From the NCBI GenBank assembly GCA_028700415.1, contig JAQVSS010000002.1, positions 2,323 to 66,322 on the forward strand: 64,000 bases of DNA, written 5' to 3'. A program made the translations under genes and the position numbers. The stretch comes from Kiritimatiellia bacterium (lineage in GTDB: Bacteria > Verrucomicrobiota > Kiritimatiellia > RFP12 > UBA1067). The notes under the pieces are model-generated. The model was given only the letters and a program-made list of their open reading frames with translations. It was not told where the DNA came from and ran no database searches. Every line of letters begins with the position of its first letter. The stretch's first letter is position 1. This document shows positions 20,120 to 40,986 of the stretch, one piece after another.

Positions 20120-23100
20120 ATGATAAAAAAGCTTTTTGGGGGCGATCCCCGCCAGGGTGTTTTTTTCAGGCGCATTGACTGGAACGCATTTTGGACGGCG
20201 ACAGTTATCTCATTCCTTGTTTATTTTTTCACGCTTGGGCCTTCCGTGACATTGGAGGATTCGGGCGAGTTGGCGGTGGCGGGGGATCACCTGGGCGTTC
20301 CGCATCCGCCCGGATATCCGATCTGGACGATATGCGCCTACCTTTTCTCGCGGTTGTTCAGCTGGGTCACGTTCCGGGGGCAGCCGACTCCCGCATGGAG
20401 CATCTCGTTGATGTCAGGGGTATTCGCCGCGCTGGCAGCCGGCCTTACGGCGATGCTGATAACGCGTTCGGCCTCGGACATGATGCGGGATGCGCATGAA
20501 GGCGAGGAAGATTTCCAGCAAGGCGAGAGCGACCTGTTGTGCTGGGCAGGAGGCGTTGGCGGCAGCCTGGTGTTCGCGTTCAGCCCGGTCATGTGGTCGC
20601 AGGCGACCATTGTCGAGGTCTACACGCTCAACGCGTTGTTCCTCATGTGGATTTTTCTGCTGACCTATCGCTGGATGCGGTGCCCGGCGGACAAAATCCT
20701 TTGGTTGACCGCATTTGTGTTCGGGCTGGGGCTCACGAATTATCAGGTGCTGTTGCTCGCGGCTCTTCCGCTGGTCGTGATGATTTTCCTGAGGGACATC
20801 GGGCTGTTCCGTGATTTCCTGTTGGTGGGGATACCGTTTCTGCTGACCGCGCATGTGCTGCAGATCGGCTCATTTCTGCCAGCCGCGCCGGGGGCTAACG
20901 GCCCGGCGTACGCAAAGTTCATGCCGCTGTCCAGGGTTTCCGTGCCGTCGATGGCCCTTTTGGTGACGGGCGGCGTGTGTGTGGCCTTCGCTGTGATGTC
21001 AGCACTGGTTTTGGATGCGTGCCGGAAAGTCACGGGGCAGGGAACGGGGCGCGAAAAGCAAAAAGCCGCGGCGTGGGCGACGTGGCTGGAAAAACTTGGC
21101 GGACTGAGTCAAAAGGGGGCCTGGGTCGCTGCAGGCGTGGCCGGTTTCGGTGCGTTACTGGTTTTGTTTTCGACAGCCGCCGCGCGCGAGGTGTCCGTGG
21201 CGGCGACGGACGCGCCGTTGCTTGCACCCGGGGTTTACACCAGCGTTGCCGGATTAATAATCCTTGTTCTCGCGTTTTGCCTAGGCGGTGCGTATGCGTA
21301 TAAAGGACGCCTGAATGACAAAGAAACACTCCCTTGGGTGATTGCGGCAGGGGCGGCTTTGCTGATTCTTTTTTTCCGGCTTTCTGCGATCAAGGGTGCC
21401 GTTCTCCCGCAGGGATATATGGGGGTACCGTTCGACTGGGCGCTGCCCACTGTCGGACTGGCGGGCGCATTGATTGTGCTTTTCTTGCTCAGCGCGACGA
21501 TTCCGCGCGGGGTGTTCTATGCGCTTCCTGTAGCCGCAGTCCAACTCGCCGTGTATGTGCTGCTGCGTAAAGGCGGCATGAACGGCTTGACGCATCCGAC
21601 CTCCTGGTGGTTCTGGTGGCCGGTCATCTGGAATTTCCTCGTCATCGGGCTGGCCGGGTTCATGTTGCCCAACGGGCGCAGCGTGGCGCTGACTACCCTT
21701 TTTGCCGAGTTGGGCATCTCTTTCTATATCTACATGCCGATCGTCTCTGATTTGCGCAACCCTCCCATGAATTGGGGGTATCCCCGCACATGGGAAGGTT
21801 TCAAACATGCCATCACGCGCGGACAGTATGAAAAACTGGCGCCGTCCGATGTTTTCACGAAAAAATTCCTTTTCCAACTCGGCACCTATTTTACCGATCT
21901 GCGTGTGCAGTTCACCCTTATTGCGGCAACACTGGGGTTCCTTCCGTTCACGCTATGGAGTTTCAGGGTTGGGACACGTCGCATCCGCGCGGTGTATGTG
22001 GCGACGGGACTTTACCTTCTGACCTGCTTGCTTGTGGTGCTTTCCGAATTTGTCGGCGGCGAACCGCTGTGGCGCATGGACAAATTGCTGATCGGCCTGA
22101 TTCTGTTGCTGTTGGTGATCGGCGTTGTGGCCATCGTGTTGCGCCAAGTGGAGGAGTTCGTTCTCAGGACATGGCGGGCACACAGCCTTTCTGAAGGGAT
22201 GACGGTTGGCCTTTCGCTCGCGGGTGTTATGGCCGTGATGGGCGTCTTTCTTGCCAAAGGGCTGATACATATGCTGTCGGGGCCGGGTGAACCGGGGTTG
22301 GGCATCAAAGTGAGCGCGCTAATCTTGGCGCTGCTGATTCTGGCCGCGTTAGGTGTGGGTTGGTATTACTTCCGGAAAATTGCCGAGAAAAAGACTGATT
22401 TCCGTTCCGACATGGATATGGTCACTCAGCAGTGGATGATCGCGACGGCGTCCGGATTTCTGGTGATGAGTGTTTTGTTAGTGGTTCTTGCGAACATTAA
22501 AGGCGATTTGCAGGATGCCTTTATCCAGAAGGTGAAGTTTGTGAGTTCGCACGGACTTTTCGCGATTTGGATCGGGTATGGTTTGGCATTCGGGCTGACG
22601 TTGGGTAACCGGATACTCAAGGCGCTGGCACGCAGGGGGGTGCTGCCGGGCAGGTTGCTGCCGGTGTTGCGGGCGGTTTTAGTGTGCGCGGGACTGCTCG
22701 TGGCCACGATCCCGATTTATGAGAACTATACGAACGAGTATCTGGTCTTTTCGATGAGTGGCGCGGAACAGAACGGGCACGATTTCGGTTGGCAGTTCGG
22801 TAATTATCAGTTGCGGGGGGCGGAAGCCGTCATGGAAGAATTGGAGGCGGATGAGGAACCCCTGCCCAACCCGCTCTTCCCGCCCGCAATGGAAACCAAC
22901 GCCATCTTTTTCGGCGGTACGGATCCGGGCCGTTTTGTGCCGACGTACATGATCTATTCGGCGGAGGTGAGGCCCGACGTCTTTCTGATCACGCAGAACG
23001 CGCTCGCGGACAACACCTATATGTCCACCATGCGGGATCTTTACGGGAACCCGATATGGATCCCGACGCCGGACGACAGCGCACGCGCTTTCCAAATATA

Positions 23101-24295
23101 TGTCGATGAGGTGCAGGCGGGCAAACGGCCGAAAAACGCCTCGCTCACGATCGAGAACGGGCGTGTACAGGTGAGCGGCGCGTTGGGAGTGATGGAGATC
23201 AACGGTATTTTATGCGATATGATTTTCGCGAAGAACAAAGCCCGTCACGCTTTTTATATCGAAGAGAGTTATGTCATCCAGTGGATGTTCCCTTATCTTT
23301 CTCCGCATGGCCTGATCATGAAGATCAACTCCGAGAAGCAGCAGCTTTCCCGCAGCAACGTGGAGGACGACATGGCGTTTTGGGACTGGTATACGCGGAG
23401 GCTGCTGCGCGAAGCCGCTTTCCGGCGTGATCTTCCCGCCCAGAAATCCTTTTCCAAACTGCGCAGCGCAATCGCCGGACTTTACGCGGCACGCGGTCTG
23501 CGGGCAGAGGCCGAGAAAGCCTTTCAGGAAGCCCGCACGCTTTATCCCGTAAGTCCCGAGGCCAATTTCCGGTTGATCCAGGAGGTATTGCTGGCGCAAG
23601 CGCGCTACGCGGAGGCCATCGACATTCTTGACGAATACAACCGCCGTGACCCCAACAACGACCGCGGTTTCGGTTTTGCCGATTTCATTAAGCGTATCCG
23701 CAACACCGAGGCCAAGGTCCGCATGCTGACGACAAAGGCGCAACAGGCCAAAACGCTCACGCCGGAAGATGCGTTTGAACTGGCTCTCGCGTACCGGGAT
23801 CTCGGCCAAAACGATTCGGCCGCGAACTATCTTCAACAGCTTGTCACGCTTCCAAACCTGCCCGTCACAAAACTTTTTGAGATCGGTTGTTTGTTGAGTA
23901 CTCTCAAGAAAACCGAGGCCGCCGTTAAGGCCATGGACCGTGTGATTGAACAGATGCCGGCGAATATGCCCCCCGAGCAGCTGCTTGAGGTCGTGCGGGT
24001 TTACGGTGAGGCCGGACAGGCCGACAAAATGATCGCGCCCTTGTCGCGGTACCTGCAGCTGCGGCCGAACGATTGGCAGGCATGGCTCGACATGGCCACC
24101 CTGTGCGCGATGAAGCAGCAGCAGCAGCAGATGCAGTTCGCCCTGCAGCGGGCGCTTGAACTTGGAAAAGGTCAAGCTGCGCAACGCATTCAAGAAAACA
24201 ACATCCTGAGGCAGGTCGCCGCGCCGTTTCTGCAACAGCTCATGCGGCAGAGGCCGGCCGGACTGCCGCCGATCGGACCGATACGGGGGCGTTGA
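20120..24295 (+). CDS. DUF2723/TMEM260-like GT-C-fold membrane glycosyltransferase candidate fused to C-terminal TPR repeats (1391 aa)
   Basis: N-terminal hallmark FTLGPSVTLEDSGELAVAGDHLGVPHPPGYPIWT. More than 20 hydrophobic segments. The C-terminal third is soluble with TPR-like repeats (AFQEARTLYPVSPEANFRL..., ALAYRDLGQNDSAANYL..., RYLQLRPNDWQAWLDMA). Confidence 0.7.
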   Translation: MIKKLFGGDPRQGVFFRRIDWNAFWTATVISFLVYFFTLGPSVTLEDSGELAVAGDHLGVPHPPGYPIWTICAYLFSRLFSWVTFRGQPTPAWSISLMSGVFAALAAGLTAMLITRSASDMMRDAHEGEEDFQQGESDLLCWAGGVGGSLVFAFSPVMWSQATIVEVYTLNALFLMWIFLLTYRWMRCPADKILWLTAFVFGLGLTNYQVLLLAALPLVVMIFLRDIGLFRDFLLVGIPFLLTAHVLQIGSFLPAAPGANGPAYAKFMPLSRVSVPSMALLVTGGVCVAFAVMSALVLDACRKVTGQGTGREKQKAAAWATWLEKLGGLSQKGAWVAAGVAGFGALLVLFSTAAAREVSVAATDAPLLAPGVYTSVAGLIILVLAFCLGGAYAYKGRLNDKETLPWVIAAGAALLILFFRLSAIKGAVLPQGYMGVPFDWALPTVGLAGALIVLFLLSATIPRGVFYALPVAAVQLAVYVLLRKGGMNGLTHPTSWWFWWPVIWNFLVIGLAGFMLPNGRSVALTTLFAELGISFYIYMPIVSDLRNPPMNWGYPRTWEGFKHAITRGQYEKLAPSDVFTKKFLFQLGTYFTDLRVQFTLIAATLGFLPFTLWSFRVGTRRIRAVYVATGLYLLTCLLVVLSEFVGGEPLWRMDKLLIGLILLLLVIGVVAIVLRQVEEFVLRTWRAHSLSEGMTVGLSLAGVMAVMGVFLAKGLIHMLSGPGEPGLGIKVSALILALLILAALGVGWYYFRKIAEKKTDFRSDMDMVTQQWMIATASGFLVMSVLLVVLANIKGDLQDAFIQKVKFVSSHGLFAIWIGYGLAFGLTLGNRILKALARRGVLPGRLLPVLRAVLVCAGLLVATIPIYENYTNEYLVFSMSGAEQNGHDFGWQFGNYQLRGAEAVMEELEADEEPLPNPLFPPAMETNAIFFGGTDPGRFVPTYMIYSAEVRPDVFLITQNALADNTYMSTMRDLYGNPIWIPTPDDSARAFQIYVDEVQAGKRPKNASLTIENGRVQVSGALGVMEINGILCDMIFAKNKARHAFYIEESYVIQWMFPYLSPHGLIMKINSEKQQLSRSNVEDDMAFWDWYTRRLLREAAFRRDLPAQKSFSKLRSAIAGLYAARGLRAEAEKAFQEARTLYPVSPEANFRLIQEVLLAQARYAEAIDILDEYNRRDPNNDRGFGFADFIKRIRNTEAKVRMLTTKAQQAKTLTPEDAFELALAYRDLGQNDSAANYLQQLVTLPNLPVTKLFEIGCLLSTLKKTEAAVKAMDRVIEQMPANMPPEQLLEVVRVYGEAGQADKMIAPLSRYLQLRPNDWQAWLDMATLCAMKQQQQQMQFALQRALELGKGQAAQRIQENNILRQVAAPFLQQLMRQRPAGLPPIGPIRGR

Positions 24296-24297
24296 GC

Positions 24298-25908
24298 ATG
24301 GGCAAAATCGGTTTGTCAGGCGTCGGATGGCTGGTGGCTCTAACCGGTGTTGTGGCGTGCGCGTTAGCGCTGCGTCTGCCGTGTCTTGATCAGCGGCCGA
24401 TGCATGGAGACGAGGCAAATCAGGCGGTGCGCACCGGCATTCTGATGGAGGCGGGGACCTATCATTACGACCCGACGGATCACCACGGCCCCGTTTTATA
24501 TTTTGCCGCGCTGCCGTTTTGCCGCATGACGGCGGAAACGTTCGCCGAAACGACCGAATGGAATTACCGCCTTGTGCCGGTGTGTTTCAGCATCCTCACA
24601 CTTCTTCTGATGCTGGGGTTGGGACGTGCCGGGGACGGCGGGCTTTTCCAAAACCGTATCGGCCTTTTTTGCGCGTTACTGTTCACTGCGCTATCGCCTG
24701 CGATGGCGTATTACAGCCGCTTTTTTATTCAGGAGACGATGCTGGTCACCTTCCTGACGGGGATGTTGGTGTGTGGCCGGCTCTATGCGCATGCGCGGTC
24801 GGGTGCGGAAGCCGCACAGGAAGGCGTTAGGCACTCCTTAACGGGGGCAGCCTGGTATTCGATCGGATTCGGCATGTTCGCGGGACTGGCGGCTGCGACC
24901 AAAGAGACGGTTGTCCTTTCGTTTTTTTCGATGTCGGTTGCAGCCGTTGCGGTATTCGGGTGGCGGAGGGTGCGTGCGGCATGGAACGCGCCGCATGCGG
25001 CGTTGGCCATAGGATCGGCGGCGGTTGTCGCGGTTGTGTTGTTCTCCTCTTTTTTCACTTATCCGAAAGGGGTGTATGAGGCGATAGTCTCAACGGTTCC
25101 CGCCTATCTTTCACGCGCCACGACGGTCGCCGAGCATCAACATCCGTGGTGGTTCTACCTGAAAGCCGTTTTCTGGTTCAAGTACGGTCGCAGTCCGGTC
25201 TGGAGCGAGGCGGGGTTACTTGTTCCGGCACTGCTGGCGGCGGTTGAAGCCGTATGGCCGCGCAGGCGGGACGCAGAGGCGTCACGCCGAACCCGTTTTG
25301 TCCGTTTCGTGTTGGTTTACACGCTCGTGCTGACCGGGGTATATTCCGCCATCCCGTACAAAACGCCGTGGTGTATGCTCTCGTTTCTTCACGGGTATAT
25401 CTTGCTGGCAGGTGTGGGGGTCGGTATCGCCGTGGACTGGCTGTGCCGGCAAACATGGCCCGTATCCCGCGTGGCCGGTTTGGCGACGGTGGCCGTACTG
25501 GTTGGTGGCCTGGCCTGCCGGCAGGCCAGGATGGCAGGCCGCGCCTGTTTCACTTGGGCAGCCGACCCGCGGAATCCGTTTGTCTATGCGCACACTGGAC
25601 GCGATGCGATGAATCTGGTCGCCGCCGTCGAAGAGGCGGCGAGTAAGGCACAAGGGTACGGAACGCTTATTGCTGTTGCCGTGCCGACACCCGACACATG
25701 GCCTTTGCCCTGGTATTTGCGCAAATACAAGCGGGTCGGTTATTGGACGCGCGTAGAGCAGATTCCTGAGACCGTGAAACCGGCCATTGTGATCGTAGCC
25801 GCCGATCAGGGTGATGTGGCGGACGAACGGTTCGGACAGGGAAAGCGCTCCTCTTTTTATGGTATCCGGCCGGGCGTGCTGTTGAACGTGTTCGTGCCCA
25901 GCCCGTAG
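24298..25908 (+). CDS. TIGR03663-like / GT-C (PMT/ArnT-like) polytopic membrane protein
   Basis: LRLPCLDQRPMHGDEANQAVRTGILMEAGTYHYDPTDHHGPVLYF, then about 12 TM segments. The start region abuts the stop of the preceding gene (TGA 24293-24295, ATG 24298, alternative TTG 24292). Confidence 0.65.
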   Translation: MGKIGLSGVGWLVALTGVVACALALRLPCLDQRPMHGDEANQAVRTGILMEAGTYHYDPTDHHGPVLYFAALPFCRMTAETFAETTEWNYRLVPVCFSILTLLLMLGLGRAGDGGLFQNRIGLFCALLFTALSPAMAYYSRFFIQETMLVTFLTGMLVCGRLYAHARSGAEAAQEGVRHSLTGAAWYSIGFGMFAGLAAATKETVVLSFFSMSVAAVAVFGWRRVRAAWNAPHAALAIGSAAVVAVVLFSSFFTYPKGVYEAIVSTVPAYLSRATTVAEHQHPWWFYLKAVFWFKYGRSPVWSEAGLLVPALLAAVEAVWPRRRDAEASRRTRFVRFVLVYTLVLTGVYSAIPYKTPWCMLSFLHGYILLAGVGVGIAVDWLCRQTWPVSRVAGLATVAVLVGGLACRQARMAGRACFTWAADPRNPFVYAHTGRDAMNLVAAVEEAASKAQGYGTLIAVAVPTPDTWPLPWYLRKYKRVGYWTRVEQIPETVKPAIVIVAADQGDVADERFGQGKRSSFYGIRPGVLLNVFVPSP

Positions 25909-25916
25909 TTTCCCGC

Positions 25917-26258
25917 TTATTTGGCTGTCTTCTCCAACACCGCGCCGATTTTGCAGGAAGCGGCGAACTGGTCTTGCGGCGTGCGTAACAACGCCACACC
26001 CTCGCGCCGGGCCGCATCGAGCATGTCTTCCGGGATGTCGCGGCGGTGGACCACGAGAACGGCGGGCGCGCCGACAAGCGTACAGACCGCCACCGTGTTT
26101 TTGTGGTTCTGCACGGTGACAAGCACCGCCCCGTCCGGACAGTGCGCGATCACATCGCTGAGCAGATCCGACGTGTAAGCGCCGGTCACCTCCGTCTGCG
26201 GGGCCGCCACCAGCACGGGTTCAAAGCCGCACGCATGGATCAGGTTCTGAAGGGTCAT
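25917..26258 (-). CDS. Single-domain DRTGG protein (copy 2)
   Basis: 113 aa. Contains TGAYTSDLLSDVIAHCPDGAVLVTVQNHKNTVAV...GAPAVLVV, the pattern of stand-alone DRTGG proteins. Its start overlaps the upstream gene's stop (ATGA, 26255-26258). Confidence 0.75.
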   Translation of the reverse strand: MTLQNLIHACGFEPVLVAAPQTEVTGAYTSDLLSDVIAHCPDGAVLVTVQNHKNTVAVCTLVGAPAVLVVHRRDIPEDMLDAARREGVALLRTPQDQFAASCKIGAVLEKTAK

Positions 26259-27223
26259 GGCGGCGTGTTCCCGATTTGAATCACAGATTTGACGGTCGTG
26301 CCCGAGCCTTTCTTCGAGGTGATCTCAAACTCGTCGGACACCCGCTTCACGTTCACCAGCCCCATTCCAGCGCCGAACCCCAACGACCGGATCCATTCGC
26401 TGGCCGTGGACGTGCCGTCCCGGCAGGCCCATTCCACGTCCTCGATGCCCGGCCCAGCGTCACGCGCAATGATTTCGGACCGTCCGTTGGCCACTTGCCA
26501 CGAGAGCACCCCCCCGTCAGAATGGACACAGAGATTGATCTCCAGCTCGTAGGCGGCCACCGCAACACGGCGGATGTCTTTCGGCGGGAACTTTTTCTCC
26601 TGCAAAATCTGCTTGATCTGATTCGCGGCCTTGCCGGCGCTCTCGAAATCGTATTTGCAGATGGGGAACTCGCGCAGCACATAGATGTTGCTTGACCCGT
26701 CGCGCATCACGTTCTGTCCGGACGCACTCTCCAACCGGTTCAGCTCGCTCGTCAACTCCACGAGCAGGACACGATTGATGTCGCGCTGACAAATGATGCC
26801 CACCAACCGCTGATCGCGGTTCAGCACGGGGAACCTCCCGTAGGAGTAACGGTCGAAATAGCGCAACGCGAACGAGAGCGGCATGTCGTCTTCGAGGACC
26901 ACCAGTTTTGTGGTCATATGACGGCTGCACGGATCATCGATGTAGCCGCCGCCAAGTGCCCGGATAATGTCGTCGATGCTGACAAGCCCGAAAAAGCGGC
27001 CGTTCTCTTCCACAGGTATGCCGCTGATCTTTTTCTTTCGCATCAGTTCCTGAGCGGCACGCATCGGCGCATCCCGGGACACGGTGACCAGTTTAGGAGT
27101 CATCACGTCGCGCACTTTAAGCCGCTGGATCAGTTCGAGCAAGACCAGCGGTTCATTGTCGACGCCGAAGTAAGCCCCGGTTTTGACGTGGCGGGCGACC
27201 GGACTCTGGGACACGACGCTCAT
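26255..27223 (-). CDS. CBS-pair plus GHKL (RsbW/SpoIIAB-like) serine-kinase-type ATPase
   Basis: Two CBS modules (VRDVMTPKLVTVSRDAPM...ISGIPVEENGRFFGLVSIDDI; HMTTKLVVLEDDMPL...GRFPVLNRDQRLVGIICQRDI). GHKL boxes: N (AAYELEINLCVH), G1 (ARDAGPGI), G2 (LGFGAGMGL). 322 aa. Confidence 0.8.
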   Translation of the reverse strand: MSVVSQSPVARHVKTGAYFGVDNEPLVLLELIQRLKVRDVMTPKLVTVSRDAPMRAAQELMRKKKISGIPVEENGRFFGLVSIDDIIRALGGGYIDDPCSRHMTTKLVVLEDDMPLSFALRYFDRYSYGRFPVLNRDQRLVGIICQRDINRVLLVELTSELNRLESASGQNVMRDGSSNIYVLREFPICKYDFESAGKAANQIKQILQEKKFPPKDIRRVAVAAYELEINLCVHSDGGVLSWQVANGRSEIIARDAGPGIEDVEWACRDGTSTASEWIRSLGFGAGMGLVNVKRVSDEFEITSKKGSGTTVKSVIQIGNTPP

Positions 27224-27558
27224 GCCCGGTTAAGTGCGGCATGAACCGCAACGCAGGCGTCATATTTCGCGAGCGGACAGATGGCGAGCGTCATGCGGAG
27301 GTCATTGGCGACGTTCACCATGGACGACGGCATCGGCTTGCCGTTCACAAGAATAACGCCGACCGCGCCCACAATTTGTGCCGTGCGGAGAACCTGATCA
27401 CTCGCCAACGAGGTCAAGAGCAGAAGGTCCTCCTCGTCCACGAGCAATACGTCACTCATCAGGTCGGAGGCCACCACATGCCGGACCGCCTTGTGGCAAC
27501 TTTCCCCTTTGACCAGAACATCCGCTTTGATTGCTTCCGCCACCTCAATAACCGTCAT
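27220..27558 (-). CDS. Single-domain DRTGG protein (copy 1)
   Basis: Start chosen at ATG 27558 (MTVIEVAEAIKADVLV...). Contains RHVVASDLMSDVLLVDEEDLLLLTSLASDQVLRTAQIVGAVGVILVNG. Its stop overlaps the kinase start (27220-27223). Confidence 0.72.
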   Translation of the reverse strand: MTVIEVAEAIKADVLVKGESCHKAVRHVVASDLMSDVLLVDEEDLLLLTSLASDQVLRTAQIVGAVGVILVNGKPMPSSMVNVANDLRMTLAICPLAKYDACVAVHAALNRA

Positions 27559-27686
27559 AAAACCTTTCTTTCCACACCGCACTTAAATGTCCATTGGTGA
27601 TTTAGCATGAACTGAAAAACAGGAACGTATTATATCGGCGCGGACCGTTTTGAACAACCCGAAAAACACGATTTGCAGTTTACCCT

Positions 27687-28496
27687 TTGCGCGTTACGGT
27701 TTACTATCTCCCCGTGTTCAAATTTGACCTCCATATCCACTCTTGCCTTTCCCCCTGCGGTGACTTGGACGCTTCGCCGTCCGCGATCGTACGGGCCGCG
27801 AAACGTGCCGGGCTGGACGGCATCATGATCGCCGATCACAACTCGTCCCGCAACAGTCCGGCGCTGGCCGAAGCTTGCCGCCGTGAAGCCTTCCGATGCC
27901 TGTTCGGCATGGAAGTCACCACCGCCGAGGAAGTTCACTGCCTCGCCGTTTTCGATACGCTTGGGCAGGCTGCCGCCATGACCGAGACCTGTTACAACGC
28001 ATTGCCAAAGCGCGTGAACCCCCCCGATGTTTTCGGTTACCAGGCGGTCGTGGATGCGGACGAGAACGTTCAAGAATTGGAGTGGCGCCTGCTGGGTGCG
28101 CCCACCCGCCTGACCATACGGGAGACGGGCGAGTGCGTTCACCGGATGGGCGGGGTGTTTATCGCCGCGCACATCGACCGTCCGGTTTTCAGTGTCACGT
28201 CCCAACTTGGGGGACTCTCCGGCGGCGAGGGGTTTGATGCGGTGGAACTGAGCCGTCACGCCGACATCGCGGTTTGGCGCGACAAAACCATGGGGCTTCC
28301 CTGCCTCCGTTTTTCGGACGCCCATCAACTGGATGGCATCGGTTCGGCGTGGACAGAGGCAGACCTTTCCGTCTTCTCAACAGCGGCACTTAAAGCCGCC
28401 TTTGCCGGCCGCCGTTTGAGCACGTCGTGCCGTGTTCCCGCTTTTTCCCCTTCTTCAAGCGCTCGGACAGGACACCCGCAAAGCGGGCAGAAATAA
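27687..28496 (+). CDS. PHP-domain metal-dependent phosphoesterase
   Basis: FKFDLHIHSCLSPCGDLDASP...GLDGIMIADHNS...FGMEVTTAEEVHCLAVF...AAHIDR. The start is uncertain (track TTG/GTG 27687, alternative GTG 27714). Divergent from the DRTGG operon and 126 nt upstream of the hydrogenase operon. Confidence 0.75.
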   Translation: MRVTVYYLPVFKFDLHIHSCLSPCGDLDASPSAIVRAAKRAGLDGIMIADHNSSRNSPALAEACRREAFRCLFGMEVTTAEEVHCLAVFDTLGQAAAMTETCYNALPKRVNPPDVFGYQAVVDADENVQELEWRLLGAPTRLTIRETGECVHRMGGVFIAAHIDRPVFSVTSQLGGLSGGEGFDAVELSRHADIAVWRDKTMGLPCLRFSDAHQLDGIGSAWTEADLSVFSTAALKAAFAGRRLSTSCRVPAFSPSSSARTGHPQSGQK

Positions 28497-28622: not shown

Positions 28623-29117
28623 GTGAGCAATGCACCGACACCCCCGGCAGGCGTTCAGAAGCTGACACCCGAGCTGAAAGCCTTCATCGCCGAATGGAAA
28701 GAAAAGCCGGGAAACCTGATCATGGTTCTGCATCGGGTGCAACAGTTTTTCGGCTATATTCCGCGTGAAGTGGCGTTCGAAGTGGCTGATCTGCTGGAAA
28801 TCCCGCTGGCAAAAATTTATGGCGTCGTCACATTCTATAACTTCTTCAAATTGAAGAAGCCGGGACGCAATCGTATCCAGGTCTGTATGGGCACCGCGTG
28901 TTACTTGAAAGGCGGCGAGGACATCATTGCGGAACTTGAAGGGATTTTGGGCGTAGGTCTCAACACCGTAACTCCGGACGGCGAGTTTTCGGCCGAAGCC
29001 GTTCGCTGCCTGGGATGTTGCGGGCTGGCACCGGTCATGGTGATCAACGGCGAGGTGTTCGGCAAAGTTAAAACGGAAGCGTTGCAGGGCATCCTTGCCA
29101 AATTCAGGAAAGGGTGA
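28623..29117 (+). CDS. hydC: NuoE-like [2Fe-2S] subunit of NAD(P)H-linked [FeFe] hydrogenase
   Basis: GTG start with GGAGG 6 nt upstream. Thioredoxin-like 2Fe-2S Cys set CMGTACYLKG...CLGCCGLAP. Also LHRVQQFFGYIP and GVVTFYNFF. Confidence 0.88.
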   Translation: MSNAPTPPAGVQKLTPELKAFIAEWKEKPGNLIMVLHRVQQFFGYIPREVAFEVADLLEIPLAKIYGVVTFYNFFKLKKPGRNRIQVCMGTACYLKGGEDIIAELEGILGVGLNTVTPDGEFSAEAVRCLGCCGLAPVMVINGEVFGKVKTEALQGILAKFRKG

Positions 29118-29665
29118 TTCCCGTGCATGCCACTGTCTGTGACACCCTCGCAGATCTGGTGCAGAACTCGATCGAGGCGGGGGCGTCGCGGATTGAACTT
29201 GACGTGTACACGGGGCCGGATGCGATCAGAGCCCGTGTGGCGGACAACGGCAAGGGAATGGATCGTGAGACGCTGCGTAAGGCGAAGGATCCTTTCTATA
29301 GCGAAAGCGGCAAACATAGTCGGCGCCGGGTAGGGCTTGGGCTTCCCTTGCTCTATCAGACCGCAGAGGCGGTCAACGGGAAGGCCGATGTCCAGTCGGC
29401 TCCGGGTAAGGGAACAACAGTGTTTTTCGAGTTTGACGCCAACCATATTGACACTCCGCCGCTGGGCGACCTGCCCGCGACGCTGCTGGGATTGATGACG
29501 TTCGAGGGCGCATATGATCTGATCCTGAAGCGGGAAACGCCAAAGGACGGGTACAAGGTTTCAAGGGGCGAATTGGCCGATGCGCTCGGCAACTTGACGG
29601 AGTCGGCCAACTTGGCTTTGGCCGGCGCCTTTTTGAGATCGCAAGAACAGGGTTTGATGTATTGA
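29114..29665 (+). CDS. Stand-alone GHKL/HATPase_c ATP-binding protein embedded in the hydrogenase operon
   Basis: GTGA overlap with the hydC stop. N box LADLVQNSIEAGA, G1 DNGKGMD, G2 GLGLPLL, then GKGTTVFFEF. No DHp/His-phosphotransfer or sensor domain. 183 aa. Confidence 0.75.
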   Translation: MIPVHATVCDTLADLVQNSIEAGASRIELDVYTGPDAIRARVADNGKGMDRETLRKAKDPFYSESGKHSRRRVGLGLPLLYQTAEAVNGKADVQSAPGKGTTVFFEFDANHIDTPPLGDLPATLLGLMTFEGAYDLILKRETPKDGYKVSRGELADALGNLTESANLALAGAFLRSQEQGLMY

Positions 29666-29686: not shown

Positions 29687-30076
29687 ATGGCTAAATTGAC
29701 ACTGAACGATTTGCGCAAATTGCGTGATGAAAAACAGAAGACAATGGCAAAGCGCGACCCCTCCCATAAGGATGCGCAGATCATTGTTGGCATGGGCACC
29801 TGCGGTATCGCGGCAGGCGCAAAAGAGACGTTTAACGCGATCATCGATGAGCTGGACGCAAAAGGCATCACCCATGTGCTGGTCCGCCAGACCGGCTGCA
29901 TGGGGCTCTGCCATTCCGAGCCGACGGTCGAGGTGATTGCCCCGAACATGCCCGTCGTGATTTACGGCAACGTGGACGCTGAGACCGGACGGCAGATCGT
30001 TCATGCGCACATCATCGGCAAGACACTCGTCGACAACCATATTTGCGACAAACCAGCAATGGACATTGTCCGCTAA
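29687..30076 (+). CDS. Thioredoxin-like [2Fe-2S] ferredoxin (HndB-like)
   Basis: IIVGMGTCGIAAGA...RQTGCMGLCHSEPTVEV. 129 aa. Sits between the GHKL gene and hydB. Confidence 0.8.
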   Translation: MAKLTLNDLRKLRDEKQKTMAKRDPSHKDAQIIVGMGTCGIAAGAKETFNAIIDELDAKGITHVLVRQTGCMGLCHSEPTVEVIAPNMPVVIYGNVDAETGRQIVHAHIIGKTLVDNHICDKPAMDIVR

Positions 30077-30093
30077 CCGGGGAAACAAACATC

Positions 30094-31881
30094 ATGGGTT
30101 ATAAACAGTACATTCTGGTCTGTGGCGGGACGGCGTGCGAATCCAATCAGGGCATCGCGCTCTTCAACGCGCTGAAAAGCGCCGTCATATCAAACGGGTT
30201 GGTCAACGACGTTCAGGTTGTGCGTACCGGCTGTCTGGGGTTTTGCGAGAAGGGCCCCATCGTCAAAATTCTTCCCCAAGACACGTTTTACGTTGAGGTG
30301 AAACCCGAAGACGCCGAAACCATTGTCAAAGAGCACATCGTTAAAGGCCGCGTCGTCTCGCGTCTGCTCTACGATAAGAAGCAGAGCCAGATCAATGTCG
30401 GGATTGAGGGCATCGATTTTTATCAGAAACAGTTCCGCATCGTGTTGCGCAACTGCGGCGTCATCGATCCTGATAAAATCGACGAGTATATCGCGCGCGA
30501 TGGCTACAAGGCGCTCGAAAAAGTGCTCTTTACGATGAAGCCGCAGGAGGTGGTCGACGAGGTCTCCAAGTCCGGCCTCCGCGGGCGCGGCGGTGCAGGC
30601 TTCCCCACCGGCAAGAAATGGTCGTTCGCGGCCGCGCAGCCCGCCGGACAGAAGTACATGGTCTGCAATGCCGATGAGGGCGATCCGGGCGCCTACATGG
30701 ACCGGTCGACGCTAGAGGGCGACCCTCATTCCGTTCTGGAAGCCATGACCATCGCCGGTTACGCGATCGGCGCCGACAAGGGTTTCATCTATATCCGCGC
30801 GGAATATCCGCTCGCGATCCAGCGTCTCGAGACGGCCATCGCCCAGTCCAGGGAATATGGGTTGCTCGGGAAAGACATTCTGGGCAGCGGGTTCTCTTTC
30901 GAAATAGAGATCCGTCTCGGCGCGGGCGCGTTTGTGTGCGGCGAAGAGACCGCCCTGCTTGCTTCGATTGAAGGCAAGCGAGGCATGCCGAAACCACGGC
31001 CGCCCTTCCCGGCCGTCAAAGGCCTCTGGGGGTGCCCCACAGTCATTAACAACGTCGAGACGCTGGCCAACATCCCCGTTATCTTAACCAAGGGCGGCCT
31101 GTGGTTCAGCAAGATCGGCACGGCGACCTCCAAGGGAACCAAGGTCTTCGCCCTCACCGGCAAGATCAACAACTCCGGGCTCATCGAGGTGCCGATGGGC
31201 ACCACGCTGCGCGAGATCATCTTCGACATTGGCGGCGGTATCCGCAACGGCAAGGCCTTCAAAGCGGCCCAGACCGGCGGCCCCTCGGGCGGCATGATCC
31301 CCCCGCAGTTTCTCGATACCCCGATCGATTACGAAAACCTTGGGAAGATCGGATCGATCATGGGCTCGGGCGGGCTCATTGTCATGGACGAGGACGACTG
31401 CATCCCCAACATCGCCAAGTTCTATCTCGACTTCACGGTGGACGAGTCCTGCGGAAAGTGCGCGCCCTGCCGCATCGGTGGGCGCAAACTGCTGGATTAC
31501 CTCAAAAAAATCTGCAACGGCGATGGCACCAATGCGGACATTGAGAATATGCAGGAAATCAGCGAAGCCATGGCTCGCGCTTCCCTGTGCGGACTCGGTC
31601 AGACGGCATCGAACCCCGTCAAGTCCAGCCTGCGTTATTTCATGGACGAGTACAAAGAGCACATCGACGAAAAGAAGTGCCGTGCCGGAAAATGCAAGAA
31701 CCTGCTTCGCTACACCATCGATGCGGCGAAGTGTGTCGGTTGTACCGCCTGCGCCCGGGTTTGTCCGGCTAACGCCATCGCCGGTGAACGCAAGCAGCCG
31801 CATGTGATTGATAAAACGAAGTGCATCAAGTGCGGCCAGTGCTTTGAGGTCTGCAAGTTCCACGCCGTCAATCGCGCATAA
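30094..31881 (+). CDS. hydB: NuoF-like flavoprotein subunit of [FeFe] hydrogenase (FMN/NAD(P)H-binding, multiple Fe-S clusters)
   Basis: Start at ATG 30094 (MGYKQYILVCGGTACESNQG, an N-terminal 2Fe-2S domain). GLRGRGGAGFPTGKKW (FMN). VCNADEGDPGAYMDR (NADH). ESCGKCAPCRIG (N3 cluster). C-terminal 2x[4Fe-4S]: CVGCTACARVCP, CIKCGQCFEVC. Confidence 0.92.
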   Translation: MGYKQYILVCGGTACESNQGIALFNALKSAVISNGLVNDVQVVRTGCLGFCEKGPIVKILPQDTFYVEVKPEDAETIVKEHIVKGRVVSRLLYDKKQSQINVGIEGIDFYQKQFRIVLRNCGVIDPDKIDEYIARDGYKALEKVLFTMKPQEVVDEVSKSGLRGRGGAGFPTGKKWSFAAAQPAGQKYMVCNADEGDPGAYMDRSTLEGDPHSVLEAMTIAGYAIGADKGFIYIRAEYPLAIQRLETAIAQSREYGLLGKDILGSGFSFEIEIRLGAGAFVCGEETALLASIEGKRGMPKPRPPFPAVKGLWGCPTVINNVETLANIPVILTKGGLWFSKIGTATSKGTKVFALTGKINNSGLIEVPMGTTLREIIFDIGGGIRNGKAFKAAQTGGPSGGMIPPQFLDTPIDYENLGKIGSIMGSGGLIVMDEDDCIPNIAKFYLDFTVDESCGKCAPCRIGGRKLLDYLKKICNGDGTNADIENMQEISEAMARASLCGLGQTASNPVKSSLRYFMDEYKEHIDEKKCRAGKCKNLLRYTIDAAKCVGCTACARVCPANAIAGERKQPHVIDKTKCIKCGQCFEVCKFHAVNRA

Positions 31882-31900
31882 TTTGAAAGGTCTTTTCTTT

Positions 31901-33655
31901 ATGGCTAACATGGTTCAACTCGAAATCAACGGCATCCCGGTCGAGGTTCCAGCCGGAACAACGATCCTGAACGCCGCCAAATCGGTCCACGTCAAGATTC
32001 CCACGCTCTGCTATCACCCGGATCTCAAGCCGTGGGCAGCCTGCGGCATCTGCGTCGTAAGGACGGCCGGATCACCCAAGCTGCTGCGTGCCTGCTGCAC
32101 GGAAGTCGCGCCAGGCATGAAGATCACAACGCACGATTCGGACATCGTCCGCGTGCGCCGCACGGTGTTGGAGCTGATCCTGTCCAATCACCCGAACGAC
32201 TGCCTGCAGTGCCCGCGGAACGGCGTATGCGAACTGCAGAAGCTCGCCGCGGACTTCGGTATCCGCGAGAATCCTTTCCCGAGCGATGTGCCGTCTCTTC
32301 CGGTCGATAACTCCACGCCCTCCATCGTGCTCAACCCCGAGAAGTGCATCAAGTGCGGCCGCTGTACCCAGGTCTGCCAGCAGATGCAGAACGTTTGGGC
32401 GCTTGAGTTCATCGGGCGCGGCGAAAAGACCCGTATGGCGCCTGCAGCCGACGTCACCCTCAATGAGTCCCCGTGCATCAAGTGCGGCCAGTGCAACGCT
32501 CACTGTCCGGTCGGCGCCATTTACGAGAAGGATCAGACCCGTGAGGTGTGGAACGCCCTGCGGGATGAGAATAAGTACTGCGTGGTTCAAATCGCTCCGG
32601 CCGTGCGTGTCGCCATTGGCGAGGCCTTCGGCTTGCCGCCCGGCACGCTGATGACGGGGGAGACCTATGCGGGTTTGCGCCGGCTCGGCTTTAAGGCCGT
32701 CTTCGACACCAACTATAGTGCCGACGTGACCATCATGGAAGAAGGCTCGGAGTTTATCAAGCGCTTCACACAGGGCAGCAAGTTGCCCCTGATCACCTCC
32801 TGTTGTCCATCATGGACCGACTGGATGGAGAAATACGCCCAGGACTTCATGGAGAACTTCTCCACGGCCAAGTCCCCGCAGCAGATGTTGGGGGTGCTCT
32901 CGAAAACGTATTACGCCGAGAAAATGGGAATTGATCCGGCCAAGATTTTCATGGTTTCAGTCATGCCCTGCACCGCCAAGAAATATGAGATCTCGCGCAG
33001 CGAGACCATGTTTGCCAGCGGACACCAGGATGTTGACGTCGTGCTCACTACCCGCGAGTTGGCCCGCATGTTCAAGAGTTCGGGCATCGATTTCATCAAC
33101 CTCGAGAAAGAAGAAGCCGACTCGATCCTTGGCCACTATACAGGCGCCGGAACAATCTTTGGCGTCACCGGCGGTGTGATGGAAGCGGCTTTGCGAACGG
33201 CTTATTGCCTGATCACCGGCGAAGCTCAGCCCCCCTCGATCAATTTCGAAGCCGTCCGCGGCATGGAAGGCGTCAAAGAGGCAACGATCGACATCAAAGG
33301 CATACCCGTCAAGATTGCCGTCGCACATCAGATGGGTAACGTCGAGCAGGTGCTTGATGCCATCCGCGGAGACCGCAAAGCGGGCCGTAAACCCCGCTAT
33401 GATTTCATCGAGGTCATGGCGTGCCGCGGTGGCTGCATCGGCGGCGGCGGGCAGCCGACGGGCGCTACGGATGATGTGCGCAAGGCCCGCACGGCCGGCA
33501 TTTACACGGACGACGAGAAGTGTGTGCTCCGCATGTCGCACCTCAACCCGCAGGTTCAGAAGCTCTACGCCGACTATTTGGGCAAGCCGCTCAGCGAGAA
33601 GGCTCACAAGCTTCTGCATAACCATTACCACCCGAAGAAGATCTACGCAAAGTAA
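31901..33655 (+). CDS. hydA: [FeFe]-hydrogenase catalytic subunit (multi-cluster, HydA/HndD type)
   Basis: Start at ATG 31901 (MANMVQLEINGIPVEVPAGTTIL). N-terminal 2Fe-2S and His-ligated cluster region (CYHPDLKPWAACGICVV; HPNDCLQCPRNGVCELQ). Two 4Fe-4S motifs (CIKCGRCTQVC; CIKCGQCNAHCP). H-cluster motifs TSCCPSW, MPCTAKKYE, EVMACRGGCIGGGGQP. C-terminal small-subunit-like tail. Confidence 0.95.
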   Translation: MANMVQLEINGIPVEVPAGTTILNAAKSVHVKIPTLCYHPDLKPWAACGICVVRTAGSPKLLRACCTEVAPGMKITTHDSDIVRVRRTVLELILSNHPNDCLQCPRNGVCELQKLAADFGIRENPFPSDVPSLPVDNSTPSIVLNPEKCIKCGRCTQVCQQMQNVWALEFIGRGEKTRMAPAADVTLNESPCIKCGQCNAHCPVGAIYEKDQTREVWNALRDENKYCVVQIAPAVRVAIGEAFGLPPGTLMTGETYAGLRRLGFKAVFDTNYSADVTIMEEGSEFIKRFTQGSKLPLITSCCPSWTDWMEKYAQDFMENFSTAKSPQQMLGVLSKTYYAEKMGIDPAKIFMVSVMPCTAKKYEISRSETMFASGHQDVDVVLTTRELARMFKSSGIDFINLEKEEADSILGHYTGAGTIFGVTGGVMEAALRTAYCLITGEAQPPSINFEAVRGMEGVKEATIDIKGIPVKIAVAHQMGNVEQVLDAIRGDRKAGRKPRYDFIEVMACRGGCIGGGGQPTGATDDVRKARTAGIYTDDEKCVLRMSHLNPQVQKLYADYLGKPLSEKAHKLLHNHYHPKKIYAK

Positions 33656-39069: not shown

Positions 39070-40986
39070 ATGGAAAGCGGTGAGAGGGTATGCGCACGGT
39101 TGCTGCAATGGGGATCCATCAGTGAATGGGGCGGATGCACGATGCGCCAGTCTGTCTTGCCACATGTCCGTTCCATGCGTGTCTTCCTCGCCGGGCTGGC
39201 CACCGGCGACGGTTGGCGAACCGCTTTGGCTTTGGTCTTTCCGGCCGCTGTGATACAGACGGTGTTTCTGCTTGAGACCGCGCATGCGCTGGTTTTCCGC
39301 TATCCCTTGGTCGATGCCGCTTCCTACCATTATCAGGCGGTGGCCATACTTGCCGGCAAGGGGACGCCCGGCGCCTTCTGGCAACCGCCGGGGTACCCGT
39401 ATTTTCTGGCCGCGCTGGAATGGTTGTGCGGCGGGGCATCACCGGGCGCGGCGCGTGCGCTCCAAGCCCTGTTGCTGGCTCCGCTCCTCAGTCTATGCGT
39501 GTGGCGGGTAGGCCGGCGGCTCTTGCCGGCGGGATGGGCGTTTACGGCGGGGCTCATCACCTGCATCACCGGCCCTTTGCTTTTCTACGCTTCCCAGTTC
39601 GTGCCGGCTGCACCCGCCGCAGTGCTTGTCACCGCTGCTTTTCTCCTGGCGATGCGCGCCGCAGAGCGGCCGACCGTGTGGCGTTGGCTGGCGGCGGGCA
39701 TGGTCACCGGCCTCGCCACGCTGATGGTGGCCACGGCGGCCGCGCTTGTGCCCGCGATGGTCTGGTTTGCATGGCGGTCATCCAAAGGGCGGCGCGTGTG
39801 TGTGCAGCATGTGGCCGCGCTTGTCGCGGGTGCGGCGCTTTGCGTGCTCCCCGTCTCTTTGCGTAACCTTGCGCGAACGGGACACTGGGTGTGGCTGTCA
39901 ACCAACGACGGCATCAATTTTTATGTTGGGAACAGCCGGGATTGGCGGGTCACCCTTTCCACTCAGCCCGGCCTGGACTGGGACAAGCTGGTGCGGTTGC
40001 CTTACACGCAAGGGAATGCGCAGGACGATGTCGACGCCGCACGCTGGTTCCGGCGGCAAACTGTACGCGAGATGCGAGGCGATTCGGCTGGTGCCATTGC
40101 ACGGCTGGTACTCAAGTCCGTTGTCTTTTGGCATGGGCGGGAAATCCCGCGCAATTTAGACCTCTACGGTTGGCGGAACGAATCCGTTTTGCTGAGAACC
40201 ACAGTCTGGCACGGTCGCACCTGTTTTCCGACCGGCCTTCTTATACCTTTGGCCGTGGTCGGTATGACTGCTTTTCGCCGCCGCCGGGAAGGCGTGTTCC
40301 TGGTTGTGTCGATGGTGGCATTCGGCCTTCTCGTCGCCCTGTTCTTTCCCTGTTCCCGTTACCGGGTTCCCCTGTTGCCCGGGCTGGTTGTTCTGGCCAC
40401 GGCTGGACTAAGCACTCTAACCTCTGCGGTTTGTGCGGGGCGGCTGCGCACCGCGGCCTTTTTAGTGCCCGTCGCCGCTGTTGTGGGGGTGGCCGCAAAC
40501 GTGCCGCTTCGTTGGCCAACGGACGTTGTCCGCTACGACGCCCATCTTCAAAACGCGGTCGGTGCCGCGGCCGATATGCGGCGCGATCTTATGACGGCCA
40601 AGACCTGTTACGAGGAGGCCGTGCGGCTCGACCCGCATTTCGCCGACGCCTCTTTCAACCTGGGCACAGTCTACGAGCGACTGTCTGATACGAAACGGGC
40701 AGAGACCTGTTACGCGGACGCACTCGCGTCCCGCTACGACCATGACAAGGCGCGTATAAATCTTGCCTTACTCCTTGCACGGCGGAATCAGTTGGCTGAA
40801 GCGCTTCATCACCTTGCCATAGCCGAGACGGTCAACCCACTCAATGCGGGAGCCTGGCACAACCACGCGGCCCTTTTATTGCAAGCCGGTCGCCGCCGCG
40901 AAGCCTTGGGGCCGCTGCGCCGTGCCGCGGAACTGGATCCAAAATATTGTGACCCCTACCGGTCGCTTTTGCGTGAGGTCAGATAG
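39070..40986 (+). CDS. GT-C (PMT_2/ArnT-like) membrane glycosyltransferase candidate with C-terminal TPR repeats
   Basis: Polytopic N-terminal part of about 470 aa (FWQPPGYPYFLAALEWL and many TM segments). C-terminal TPRs (CYEEAVRLDPHFADASFNLGTVYERL..., CYADALASRYDHDKARINLALLL..., AIAETVNPLNAGAWHNHAALLL...). The start is uncertain (39070, 39142 or later). Confidence 0.65.
   Translation: MESGERVCARLLQWGSISEWGGCTMRQSVLPHVRSMRVFLAGLATGDGWRTALALVFPAAVIQTVFLLETAHALVFRYPLVDAASYHYQAVAILAGKGTPGAFWQPPGYPYFLAALEWLCGGASPGAARALQALLLAPLLSLCVWRVGRRLLPAGWAFTAGLITCITGPLLFYASQFVPAAPAAVLVTAAFLLAMRAAERPTVWRWLAAGMVTGLATLMVATAAALVPAMVWFAWRSSKGRRVCVQHVAALVAGAALCVLPVSLRNLARTGHWVWLSTNDGINFYVGNSRDWRVTLSTQPGLDWDKLVRLPYTQGNAQDDVDAARWFRRQTVREMRGDSAGAIARLVLKSVVFWHGREIPRNLDLYGWRNESVLLRTTVWHGRTCFPTGLLIPLAVVGMTAFRRRREGVFLVVSMVAFGLLVALFFPCSRYRVPLLPGLVVLATAGLSTLTSAVCAGRLRTAAFLVPVAAVVGVAANVPLRWPTDVVRYDAHLQNAVGAAADMRRDLMTAKTCYEEAVRLDPHFADASFNLGTVYERLSDTKRAETCYADALASRYDHDKARINLALLLARRNQLAEALHHLAIAETVNPLNAGAWHNHAALLLQAGRRREALGPLRRAAELDPKYCDPYRSLLREVR

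Follow-up and report, generated by a model that had tools for sequence, protein, structure and literature searches.

The locus described here lies in a 64,000-nt stretch (G+C 60%) of a Kiritimatiellae metagenome-assembled genome (MAG), referred to below as the window. Three consecutive open reading frames (ORFs) on its minus strand, named D1, K and D2, encode a CBS-CBS-GHKL protein (K) between two small DRTGG-type proteins, and a gap of 104–128 nt separates them from the oppositely oriented genes PHP-HydC-g-f-HydB-HydA (Table 1). A preliminary description of this DNA had reported that the three genes are joined by 4-nt ATGA stop/start overlaps, and both were confirmed, between D1 and K at 27220–27223 and between K and D2 at 26255–26258, so that translation of the genes is probably coupled. 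The motifs that it quoted (VASDLMSDVLL, YTSDLLSDVIAH, ELEINLCVH, DAGPGI and GFGAGMG) were all present. From its span for the operon, 25917–27582, the 25917 end was retained, while the upper end is probably 27558. D1 most likely starts at the ATG at 27558 (MTVIEV...) rather than at 27582, because its orthologues begin with MKLxEI and a purine tract, GAAAGAAAGG, lies upstream. Promoter and terminator scans of the divergent intergenic region were uninformative; no sigma-70-like match was reported there, and no inverted repeat or palindrome, a Rex-type operator included, was found.

Table 1. Features of the D1-K-D2 operon and of the divergent hydrogenase operon (window coordinates; aa, amino acids)
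Feature	Coordinates	Strand	Remarks
D1, DRTGG-type single-domain protein	27220..27558	-	112 aa from ATG 27558; ORF reaches GTG 27582 (120 aa)
D1 Ser35 codon (ATG numbering; DLMSD motif)	27454..27456	-	invariant in D1 orthologues
K, CBS-CBS-GHKL protein	26255..27223	-	322 aa
K CBS pair, aa 26-145	26789..27148	-	Pfam, AlphaFold2, fold matches
K connector, predicted long helix, aa 146-170	26714..26788	-	AlphaFold2 secondary structure
K SpoIIAB-like GHKL domain, aa 182-316	26276..26680	-	invariant boxes, PDB profile, Foldseek
D2, DRTGG-type single-domain protein	25917..26258	-	113 aa; motifs YTSDLLSDV, T48-Q50-H52-N54
D2 Ser34 codon (DLLSD motif)	26157..26159	-	invariant in aligned D2 orthologues
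Divergent intergenic region D1/PHP, presumed promoters	27559..27686	.	position between genes
PHP phosphoesterase	27687..28496	+	Pfam PHP + PHP_C
HydC, NuoE-like 2Fe-2S subunit	28623..29117	+	Pfam/NCBIfam
g, 183-aa histidine-kinase-like ATPase	29114..29665	+	Pfam HATPase_c 65.7 bits
f, small thioredoxin-like 2Fe-2S ferredoxin-like protein	29687..30076	+	Pfam/NCBIfam
HydB, NuoF-like FMN/NADH subunit	30043..31881	+	likely start ATG near 30094
HydA	31808..33655	+	likely start ATG near 31904; Pfam Fe_hyd_lg_C 304 bits

The middle protein had been read as two CBS domains followed by an RsbW/SpoIIAB-type GHKL ATPase, and the searches bore this out. Pfam recognised both parts above threshold, the CBS pair with E 1e-28 and HATPase_c_2 (PF13581) with 30.9 bits against a gathering score of 27.4. 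K has 3200 homologues at E ≤ 1e-5, and in 41 of them (29–61% identity) the N box (E226/E228/N230), the G1 box (D255/G257/G259) and the G2 box (G282/G284/G286/G288) were invariant. The degenerate ATP-binding boxes that the preliminary description had named as a finding against its proposal were not encountered, and by these residues the Bergerat-fold ATP site of K is intact. Using the GHKL profile against the PDB, SpoIIAB was the best match (E ~1e-11), RsbW matched with E 1.6e-3, and the catalytic ATP-binding domains of CheA and histidine kinases with E 8e-5 or worse. The C-terminal half of K matched the SpoIIAB structures 1L0O/1TIL in Foldseek with template modelling (TM) scores of 0.76–0.78 (1L0O, 0.78). 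The ATPase domain of K is classified accordingly as a GHKL domain of the SpoIIAB/RsbW/RsbT class and as a putative serine kinase. The AlphaFold2 (AF2) model of K, with a predicted local distance difference test score (pLDDT) of 73.5 and a predicted TM score (pTM) of 0.49, placed the CBS pair, a long helix and the GHKL domain in that order.

Ribose binding in CBS motifs follows the rule G-h-h-[ST]-x-x-[DN]. Both motifs of K are of the G-h-h-x-x-x-D type; GLVSIDD fits the rule, and GIICQRD has Cys where the family consensus is Thr. In fold, the CBS pair matched CBS pairs that bind AMP, ADP, ATP, S-adenosylmethionine, diadenosine tetraphosphate (Ap4A) or cyclic di-AMP (target-normalised TM about 0.8), AcuB with Ap4A being one of them. 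Its best NCBIfam matches were CBS-pyrophosphatases. By these features the CBS pair qualifies as a Bateman module and is a candidate sensor of adenosyl ligands.

D1 and D2 had been described as paralogous DRTGG proteins. The paralogy stood, with a BLASTP E of 2e-6 and profiles that align over their full length in hhalign (E 2e-28), while the DRTGG assignment held for the families and not for the single sequences. Searched singly against PF07085, D2 reached 18.3 bits (gathering score 25.2) and D1 was unmatched, both short of the threshold, and the single-sequence NCBIfam search likewise gave no DRTGG call for the window's own small proteins. Orthologues were collected from related loci (50 upstream-type, D1, and 49 downstream-type, D2). 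PF07085 was matched at E ≤ 0.01 by 23 of 26 D1 orthologues (best 8e-9) and by 24 of 26 D2 orthologues (best 1e-7), with weaker matches to the HprK N-terminal and PucR N-terminal families. The two family profiles also matched the DRTGG structures 3L2B/3L31 (the regulatory part of a CBS-pyrophosphatase) and 2IOJ (AF1212), plus the HprK N-domain 1KO7. For D2, the best NCBIfam match was the CBS-pyrophosphatase model, and the AF2 model (pLDDT 70.5) had 2IOJ as its best fold match, followed by 3L2B; the statistics of the 2IOJ match were weak (probability 0.84, TM 0.53, E 0.11). By profile comparison, D1 and D2 are true DRTGG paralogues that are recognisable at family level only.

A DL[ML]SD motif with an invariant Ser occurs in both proteins (Ser35 in ASDLMSDVL of D1, Ser34 of D2). 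DLLSD was found in 120/120 database homologues of D2, and a DL[MLI]SD-type motif in 119/120 proteins in which D1 is fused to GHKL. Since AF1212 carries Leu at this position, the Ser is specific to the subfamily. In the AF2 model of D2, Ser34 is predicted at the N-terminus of helix 33–39. The invariant block T48-Q50-H52-N54 of D2 (aa 44–54, window 26097–26129) lies in the only segment of the model with pLDDT <50, which would fit a loop that becomes ordered upon binding of a partner or ligand. D2 has homologues in at least 7041 database clusters. D2-type single-domain proteins (P0388–P0507) are widely annotated as 'serine kinase (of HPr protein)' because of weak Hpr_kinase_N matches, though they have no kinase domain.

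The preliminary description had placed the operon divergent from a PHP gene and a bifurcating-type [FeFe]-hydrogenase operon, and the domain searches agree. HydA scored 805 bits against the NCBIfam model FeFe_hydrog_A6 (NADH-dependent [FeFe] hydrogenase, group A6; cutoff 765) and has a complete H-cluster signature. HydB scored 489 bits with nuoF_fam, under its cutoff of 558.65, and HydC 150 bits as a HoxE/NuoE-like protein. By sequence the operon qualifies as an NADH-linked HydABC-type [FeFe] hydrogenase of the putatively bifurcating type. The f protein is probably the 'HydD' of the literature. The N/G1/G2/G3 boxes of g are conserved, and we take g to be the counterpart of 'HydE' of Acetobacterium woodii and 'hisK' of Acetomicrobium mobile. 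A C-terminal motif of g, SHIDRxPLGD (H111, D113, P116 and G118 at ≥90% in 42 orthologues), looks like a HisKA H-box sited after, not before, the ATPase domain.

In the PHP family H16, H18, D50, H51, E76, H84, H162, D164, D211 and H213, presumably the metal ligands, are kept together with Cys24. The PHP profile matched 3E0F/3O0F (TrpH-like), EndoQ, TM0559, RNase AM (7UG9), Cv1693 (2YB1), PolC PHP domains and histidinol phosphatase. Homology did not support an assignment as a CpsB/YwqE-like protein (tyrosine) phosphatase, as the PDB profile search gave no such match at E<0.01. Within the motif DLHxHSCLSPC (aa 14–26) Cys24 is invariant and Cys20 frequent, where other PHP enzymes have S-x-D-G; the two Cys could be a metal ligand or a redox-sensitive site beside the catalytic metals.

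The surroundings of K were then compared in a census. One genome per species was scanned with the K alignment; at least 600 stretches matched, 599 of those encode a K relative, and the best 80 of the at least 600 stretches were analysed in detail, with counts given over 81 loci. Iterated profiles built from the nine window proteins were used to search the ORFs. Loci with at least 8 kb on both sides of K were counted as fully flanked (42 of 81), and HydB was counted if it had at least 450 aa and lay within 10 kb of K. The loci came from Kiritimatiellia/Lentisphaerae/Verrucomicrobiota, Spirochaetota, Chloroflexota, Atribacterota, Acidobacteriota, Desulfobacterota, Nitrospirota, Fidelibacterota, Cloacimonadota, Planctomycetota, Actinomycetes and Bacteroides, more than 12 phyla in total. 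At least one DRTGG gene stood beside K in 74/81 loci and both in 35/81; D1 was found there in 50/81 loci (28/42 fully flanked) and D2 in 59/81 (33/42). Among the fully flanked loci, PHP lay within 2.5 kb of K in 33/42, g occurred with K in 24/42, and HydB was present in 25/42. D1, D2 and PHP travel with K in this set of loci, and the cassette is real and widespread. The co-occurrence with hydrogenase operons that the preliminary description had expected in other genomes was likewise found across phyla. In the fully flanked set g tracks HydB, being present in 23/25 loci with HydB and in 1/17 without it, and the presence of D1 also correlates with HydB (odds ratio 7.5, Fisher p 0.007, phylogenetically uncorrected).

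Outside the Planctomycetes-Verrucomicrobia-Chlamydiae (PVC) group the genes are usually co-directional, in the order D1-K-D2-PHP-(C-g-f-B-A) or C-f-B-D1-K-D2-PHP-g-A. The hyd operon and (Rex)-D1-K-(D2)-PHP point away from each other in Kiritimatiellia relatives, while in the window the break lies between D2 and PHP, which directly follows D2 in other loci. Since the break point differs between the window and these relatives, the linkage survives rearrangement.

The GHKL domain of K was not confined to the CBS architecture. A search over 1.84 billion cluster representatives gave ~70 full-length CBS-GHKL clusters at E<1e-30 and, at 40–47% identity to the GHKL domain alone, standalone proteins (~140 aa), GHKL-Fer4-Fe_hyd_lg_C-FeS fusions (~530 aa, GHKL joined to HydS), DRTGG(D1)-GHKL fusions (~270 aa, D1K below) and a receiver (REC)-GHKL protein. 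The D1-GHKL family, with >1300 matches at E ≤ 1e-10 in Desulfobacterota, Thermoanaerobacterales and Aminicenantales, is mostly annotated 'anti-sigma regulatory factor / RsbT'. D1 is N-terminally fused to GHKL in >100 full-length proteins of several lineages, and these fusions argue for a physical association of D1 with the GHKL domain. Two other candidates were rejected as fusion evidence: P0141, which looks like a K-D2 fusion, results from a frameshift, and P0127 (D1-CBS-GHKL) is truncated at its N-terminus.

In a related cassette the GHKL gene is followed by HydS, a putative sensory hydrogenase. In Caldanaerovirga acetigignens (L081) the order is Rex-D1K-HydS-D2-PHP-HydC-g-f-HydB-HydA-Rnf. 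An Aminicenantales MAG (L084) has Fer4, CCG-domain and FAD-binding genes, which we take to be Hdr-like, followed by D1K-HydS-D2-PHP-g up to the contig end. A JGI metagenome contig (L085) starts in the same way and continues with g-HydC-f-HydB-A-type subunit-FlpD-NiFe small, and a contig with a Latescibacteria-named D2 (L086) is arranged as L085, with D1 and K as separate genes and NiFe small and large at its end. In a Desulfobacterota MAG (L083, 10001–12822) D1K-D2-PHP-g is directly followed by a single-domain receiver gene, and neither a hydrogenase nor NuoEF genes lie within 10 kb. The cassette can thus occur on its own, and g with it. A HydS-type gene between K and D2 was found in 0/81 CBS-K loci. 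Several input domains, the CBS pair among them, can stand in for one another on this GHKL domain, and the window operon is best read as the CBS-instead-of-HydS form of a D1-K-HydS-D2-PHP-g cassette.

The two forms share homologous GHKL domains (at the identity given above), the same D1/D2/PHP/g neighbours in the same order, and the same enzyme family. Unlike the HydS-linked cassette, the window has no HydS gene, its CBS pair is fused N-terminally to GHKL, and its cassette is split, with D1-K-D2 on one strand and PHP-hyd on the other. The window copy is new by its CBS input, its split gene order and its PVC lineage. Since it has a CBS pair where the other form has HydS, it probably senses an adenosine-containing metabolite rather than H2. 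The HydS-linked cassette takes in the 'group C1 [FeFe]-hydrogenase with HATPase_C' of Hydrogenedentota, where group C1 hydrogenases with a HATPase_C domain have been reported (PMC11406978), and probably the histidine-kinase-like ATPase flanking TamHydS. The preliminary description had also named such a gene set beside HydABC in Clostridia, which agrees with the related set in Thermoanaerobacterales (L081) and, by the annotation in a published paper, with Halanaerobium. The operon list of Halanaerobium hydrogeniformans names a PHP protein, an Fe-S hydrogenase, an anti-sigma Ser/Thr kinase and an unidentified ORF (PMC4237134).

The catalytic partner of the cassette varies. A true H-cluster HydA stood beside it in the PVC and Spirochaete loci, as well as in a small number of further loci (L033, L053, L072). 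In most non-PVC loci the 'A' subunit resembles NuoG and carries a molybdopterin-type domain, and some of these loci also have genes for the NiFe small and large subunits, an arrangement that corresponds to the published NiFe-HydABCSL organisation (PMC9304861). In another group 'A' is a fusion of ~1090 aa (Fer2_4-Fer4-pyridine-nucleotide-oxidoreductase), with NiFe subunits after it in two loci. A reading of these non-PVC 'HydA-like' neighbours as [FeFe] hydrogenases was rejected, since by their motifs and Pfam domains these subunits lack an H-cluster and are either NuoG-like or fused to GltD, some with NiFe genes nearby. In six loci from Acidobacteriota, Bacteroides, Cloacimonadota and Desulfobacterota (L064, L080, L052, L067, L074, L079) the cassette lies between HydB and the ~1090-aa Fer2_4-Fer4-Pyr_redox_2 (GltD-like) protein without an H-cluster, followed in L064 and L080 by NiFe small and large; these loci look like an uncharacterised NuoEF-linked type of NiFe/NAD(P)H complex. 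The common denominator of the loci with [FeFe] and [NiFe] partners is HydB/HydC plus g. The cassette follows the NuoE/NuoF module whatever the H2 site, [FeFe] or [NiFe].

Tracking of the NuoE/F module and not of the H2 catalytic site would suit a role in assembly, maturation or repair, in which the two GHKL ATPases, PHP and the DRTGG proteins load or exchange cofactors (flavin mononucleotide, Fe-S) in this module or keep it active. The GHKL superfamily takes in chaperone-type ATPases, and g lies inside the structural operon. HydE of A. woodii and 'hisK' of A. mobile, like g, are histidine-kinase-like ATPases of ~180 aa encoded next to hydC. Both were absent from the purified enzymes (PMC3315566, PMC9304861), which fits an accessory or signalling role of a g-type protein, and the A. 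woodii authors proposed 'assembly or signalling' for HydE (PMC3315566). Unlike the window, however, these operons have no D, K or PHP genes in their published lists, g itself not being one of the three genes. The A. woodii HydABC operon, which has g, indicates that D, K and PHP are not generally required for assembly (PMC3315566). The inputs of K (CBS, REC, HydS, DRTGG) are typical of signalling proteins and not of chaperones, and K is closest to Ser kinases. An assembly role is quite improbable.

All-against-all clustering of the neighbours found no further widely conserved partner; only Rex (13 loci) and the [NiFe] large/small subunits (12–14 loci) were recurrent, so that the conserved neighbours from which an output could be drawn are HydC/f/B/A, g, Rex and the NiFe subunits. 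The rex gene (PF06971 + CoA_binding) lies directly upstream of D1 in 13/81 CBS-K loci (L005, L008, L012, L017, L019, L021, L024, L030, L032, L034, L050, L053, L072) and in Caldanaerovirga (L081, 9372–10004). Loci without HydB are mostly Spirochaetota K-D2-PHP trios, of which some precede a 7TMR-DISM hybrid kinase and a sigma-54 activator and others lie in unrelated contexts. In the Spirochaete loci L023, L031 and L037, PHP is followed by a HATPase-containing protein of ~1050–1090 aa. In L037 (11977–16666), whose D2 escaped the census overlap filter, this is a 7TMR-DISM hybrid histidine kinase by Pfam, a sigma-54-dependent response regulator comes next, and no hydrogenase was found within 10 kb.

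Such neighbours raise the question of transcriptional control. K might act as an anti-sigma factor, or K and the DRTGG proteins might jointly oppose or assist Rex or a different regulator, so that hyd expression and not enzyme activity would be set. The closest solved relatives of K, SpoIIAB and RsbW, are anti-sigma factors, and rex and the sigma-54 activator occur at the positions just described. The literature also considers that kinases and phosphatases encoded nearby may regulate transcription (PMC3492117). Rex, however, in its 13/81 loci, was the only conserved sigma-factor or DNA-binding neighbour seen, and the window operon has neither an adjacent rex nor a palindromic operator. In most phyla the cassette is part of the structural operon, placed either between hydB and the gene for the catalytic subunit or ahead of hydC, and is thus under the operon's own control. 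We regard transcriptional control as unlikely.

The preliminary description had proposed a partner-switching logic for D1-K-D2. Like RsbR/RsbS-RsbT-RsbX and SpoIIAA-SpoIIAB-SpoIIE, the window has a GHKL protein of the SpoIIAB/RsbW/RsbT class, small paralogous partners that flank the kinase gene, overlapping genes, an adjacent phosphoesterase gene, and one invariant Ser per partner, at a predicted helix N-terminus in D2. Unlike in those modules, the partners are DRTGG and not STAS proteins, the esterase is PHP and not PP2C, the kinase carries a CBS pair, and the module sits within the operon of a metabolic enzyme, with no sigma factor or other known output linked to it. The SpoIIAB-class ATPase and the small flanking partners of the proposal were thus retained, while STAS, PP2C and a sigma factor were not found. 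The homology of PHP weakens, without excluding, its equation with SpoIIE or RsbX. As an analogy, 'partner-switching-like' is plausible for D1-K-D2.

We tentatively favour, at somewhat less than even chances, a reading of D1-K-D2 as a ligand-sensing kinase switch that acts post-translationally on the NADH module of the hydrogenase. The CBS pair would bind an adenosine-containing ligand (AMP/ADP/ATP, Ap4A or NAD(H)), and the DRTGG proteins might share in the binding, as in the CBS-DRTGG-CBS insert of CBS-pyrophosphatase. The ligand state would pass through the long connector helix and set the state of the GHKL domain, which would bind D1 and D2 and phosphorylate their invariant Ser, as RsbT does on RsbR/RsbS and SpoIIAB on SpoIIAA. 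The PHP enzyme encoded next to D2 would reset the switch. By being free or bound, the DRTGG proteins, and possibly also g, would then act on the common HydB/HydC module, so that H2 production or uptake may follow the energy or redox state. A post-translational output is proposed because no cassette protein matched a DNA-binding domain and the genes usually lie inside the structural operon.

A nucleotide-dependent switch without protein phosphorylation could use the same parts. K would be an ATP/ADP-binding sensor or a slow ATPase, D1 and D2 regulatory or dimerisation partners, and PHP would make or destroy a small nucleotide (e.g. phosphoadenosine phosphate (pAp), Ap4A or a linear/cyclic dinucleotide) read by CBS/DRTGG, the output being altered contacts with the HydBC module or with g. 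The profile matches of PHP are nucleotide and nucleic-acid phosphoesterases (3E0F/3O0F, RNase AM 7UG9, 2YB1, EndoQ), the fold matches of the CBS pair are nucleotide-bound, AcuB with Ap4A included, and D1 is fused to GHKL in the manner of a sensor domain. The CBS pair and D2 are closest to the CBS-pyrophosphatase insert (CBS-DRTGG-CBS; 3L2B, 3L31), the only solved system that, like the window, combines a CBS pair with DRTGG, and which by its PDB titles binds AMP and Ap4A. This insert, unlike the window, is one polypeptide that controls a DHH pyrophosphatase, whereas the window has CBS and DRTGG in different proteins and GHKL as the attached output. Against such a switch, PHP and D2 stay linked to K variants without a CBS pair, so PHP is not tied to the CBS ligand; the GHKL domain falls in the SpoIIAB/RsbW kinase class and not in a known non-catalytic class; and the subfamily-specific invariant Ser in both paralogues is most simply explained as an acceptor site. 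We consider this nucleotide switch rather doubtful.

Several points weigh against the kinase switch acting on the NADH module. The solved relatives of PHP (3E0F, EndoQ, RNase AM, pAp phosphatase) point to nucleotide and nucleic-acid phosphoesterases, and a kinase fused to its own substrate, as D1-GHKL would be, is uncommon; the fusion is also compatible with D1 as a regulatory domain. The locus showed no recognisable STAS or PP2C protein, where no search was aimed at STAS by name, and no sigma factor was among the conserved neighbours in the clustering. The hydrogenase-adjacent HydABC-type module of the preliminary description held in its linkage, but the partner is [FeFe] or [NiFe], and 17/42 fully flanked loci, mostly of Spirochaetota, have no HydB within 10 kb. 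Together with D1K-D2-PHP-g beside REC without a hydrogenase in L083, these loci imply that the output need not be the hydrogenase itself. The AF2 model of K gives no confident CBS-GHKL arrangement at its pTM, and that of D2 is moderate only. The census was seeded on K homologues, and its statistics ignore phylogenetic kinship.

A wider proposal goes beyond the locus. Single-domain DRTGG proteins would form a second, STAS-independent class of phospho-acceptors, written by a SpoIIAB-like kinase and erased by PHP as a protein phosphatase, which gates NuoE/F-type bifurcating hydrogenases post-translationally with CBS (adenosine-type metabolite), HydS (H2) or REC as inputs. We put this forward as a speculative possibility, less likely than the switch at the locus itself. 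If DRTGG proteins are phosphorylated, the DRTGG domain would gain a role and a PHP enzyme of the TrpH-like branch a protein substrate. In the literature searched, DRTGG appeared only for CBS-pyrophosphatases, Pta and the AAA-DRTGG gene of D. vulgaris. Full-text searches turned up no functional study of the cassette genes, only passing gene lists, which agrees with the statement in the preliminary description that no experiment defines their role.

The H2 economy of anaerobic communities is governed by electron-bifurcating hydrogenases, at which bio-hydrogen engineering also aims. Their known switching, be it on, off or between directions, consists of Rex-type transcription control and 'putative sensory' HydS proteins. 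An exchange of HydS, CBS, REC and DRTGG inputs on one GHKL output would join the orphan HydS 'sensor' and HydE/hisK into one pathway. Through the cassette, the control of bifurcating hydrogenases becomes open to direct test, as do the functions of HydS, HydE/hisK, DRTGG and the PHP branch.

The rest of the window encodes a TRAP transporter, tRNA synthetases and glycoside-related proteins, and no hydrogenase maturation or regulatory genes were seen there. A 1391-aa polytopic membrane/TPR protein and a 538-aa polytopic membrane protein, possibly glycosyltransferase-like, converge on the end of the operon (20120–25908), and a third protein, PMT_2 + TPR, lies downstream (39070–40986). The genes of the window are nearly all on the plus strand, so that the three-gene operon forms a small inverted island.

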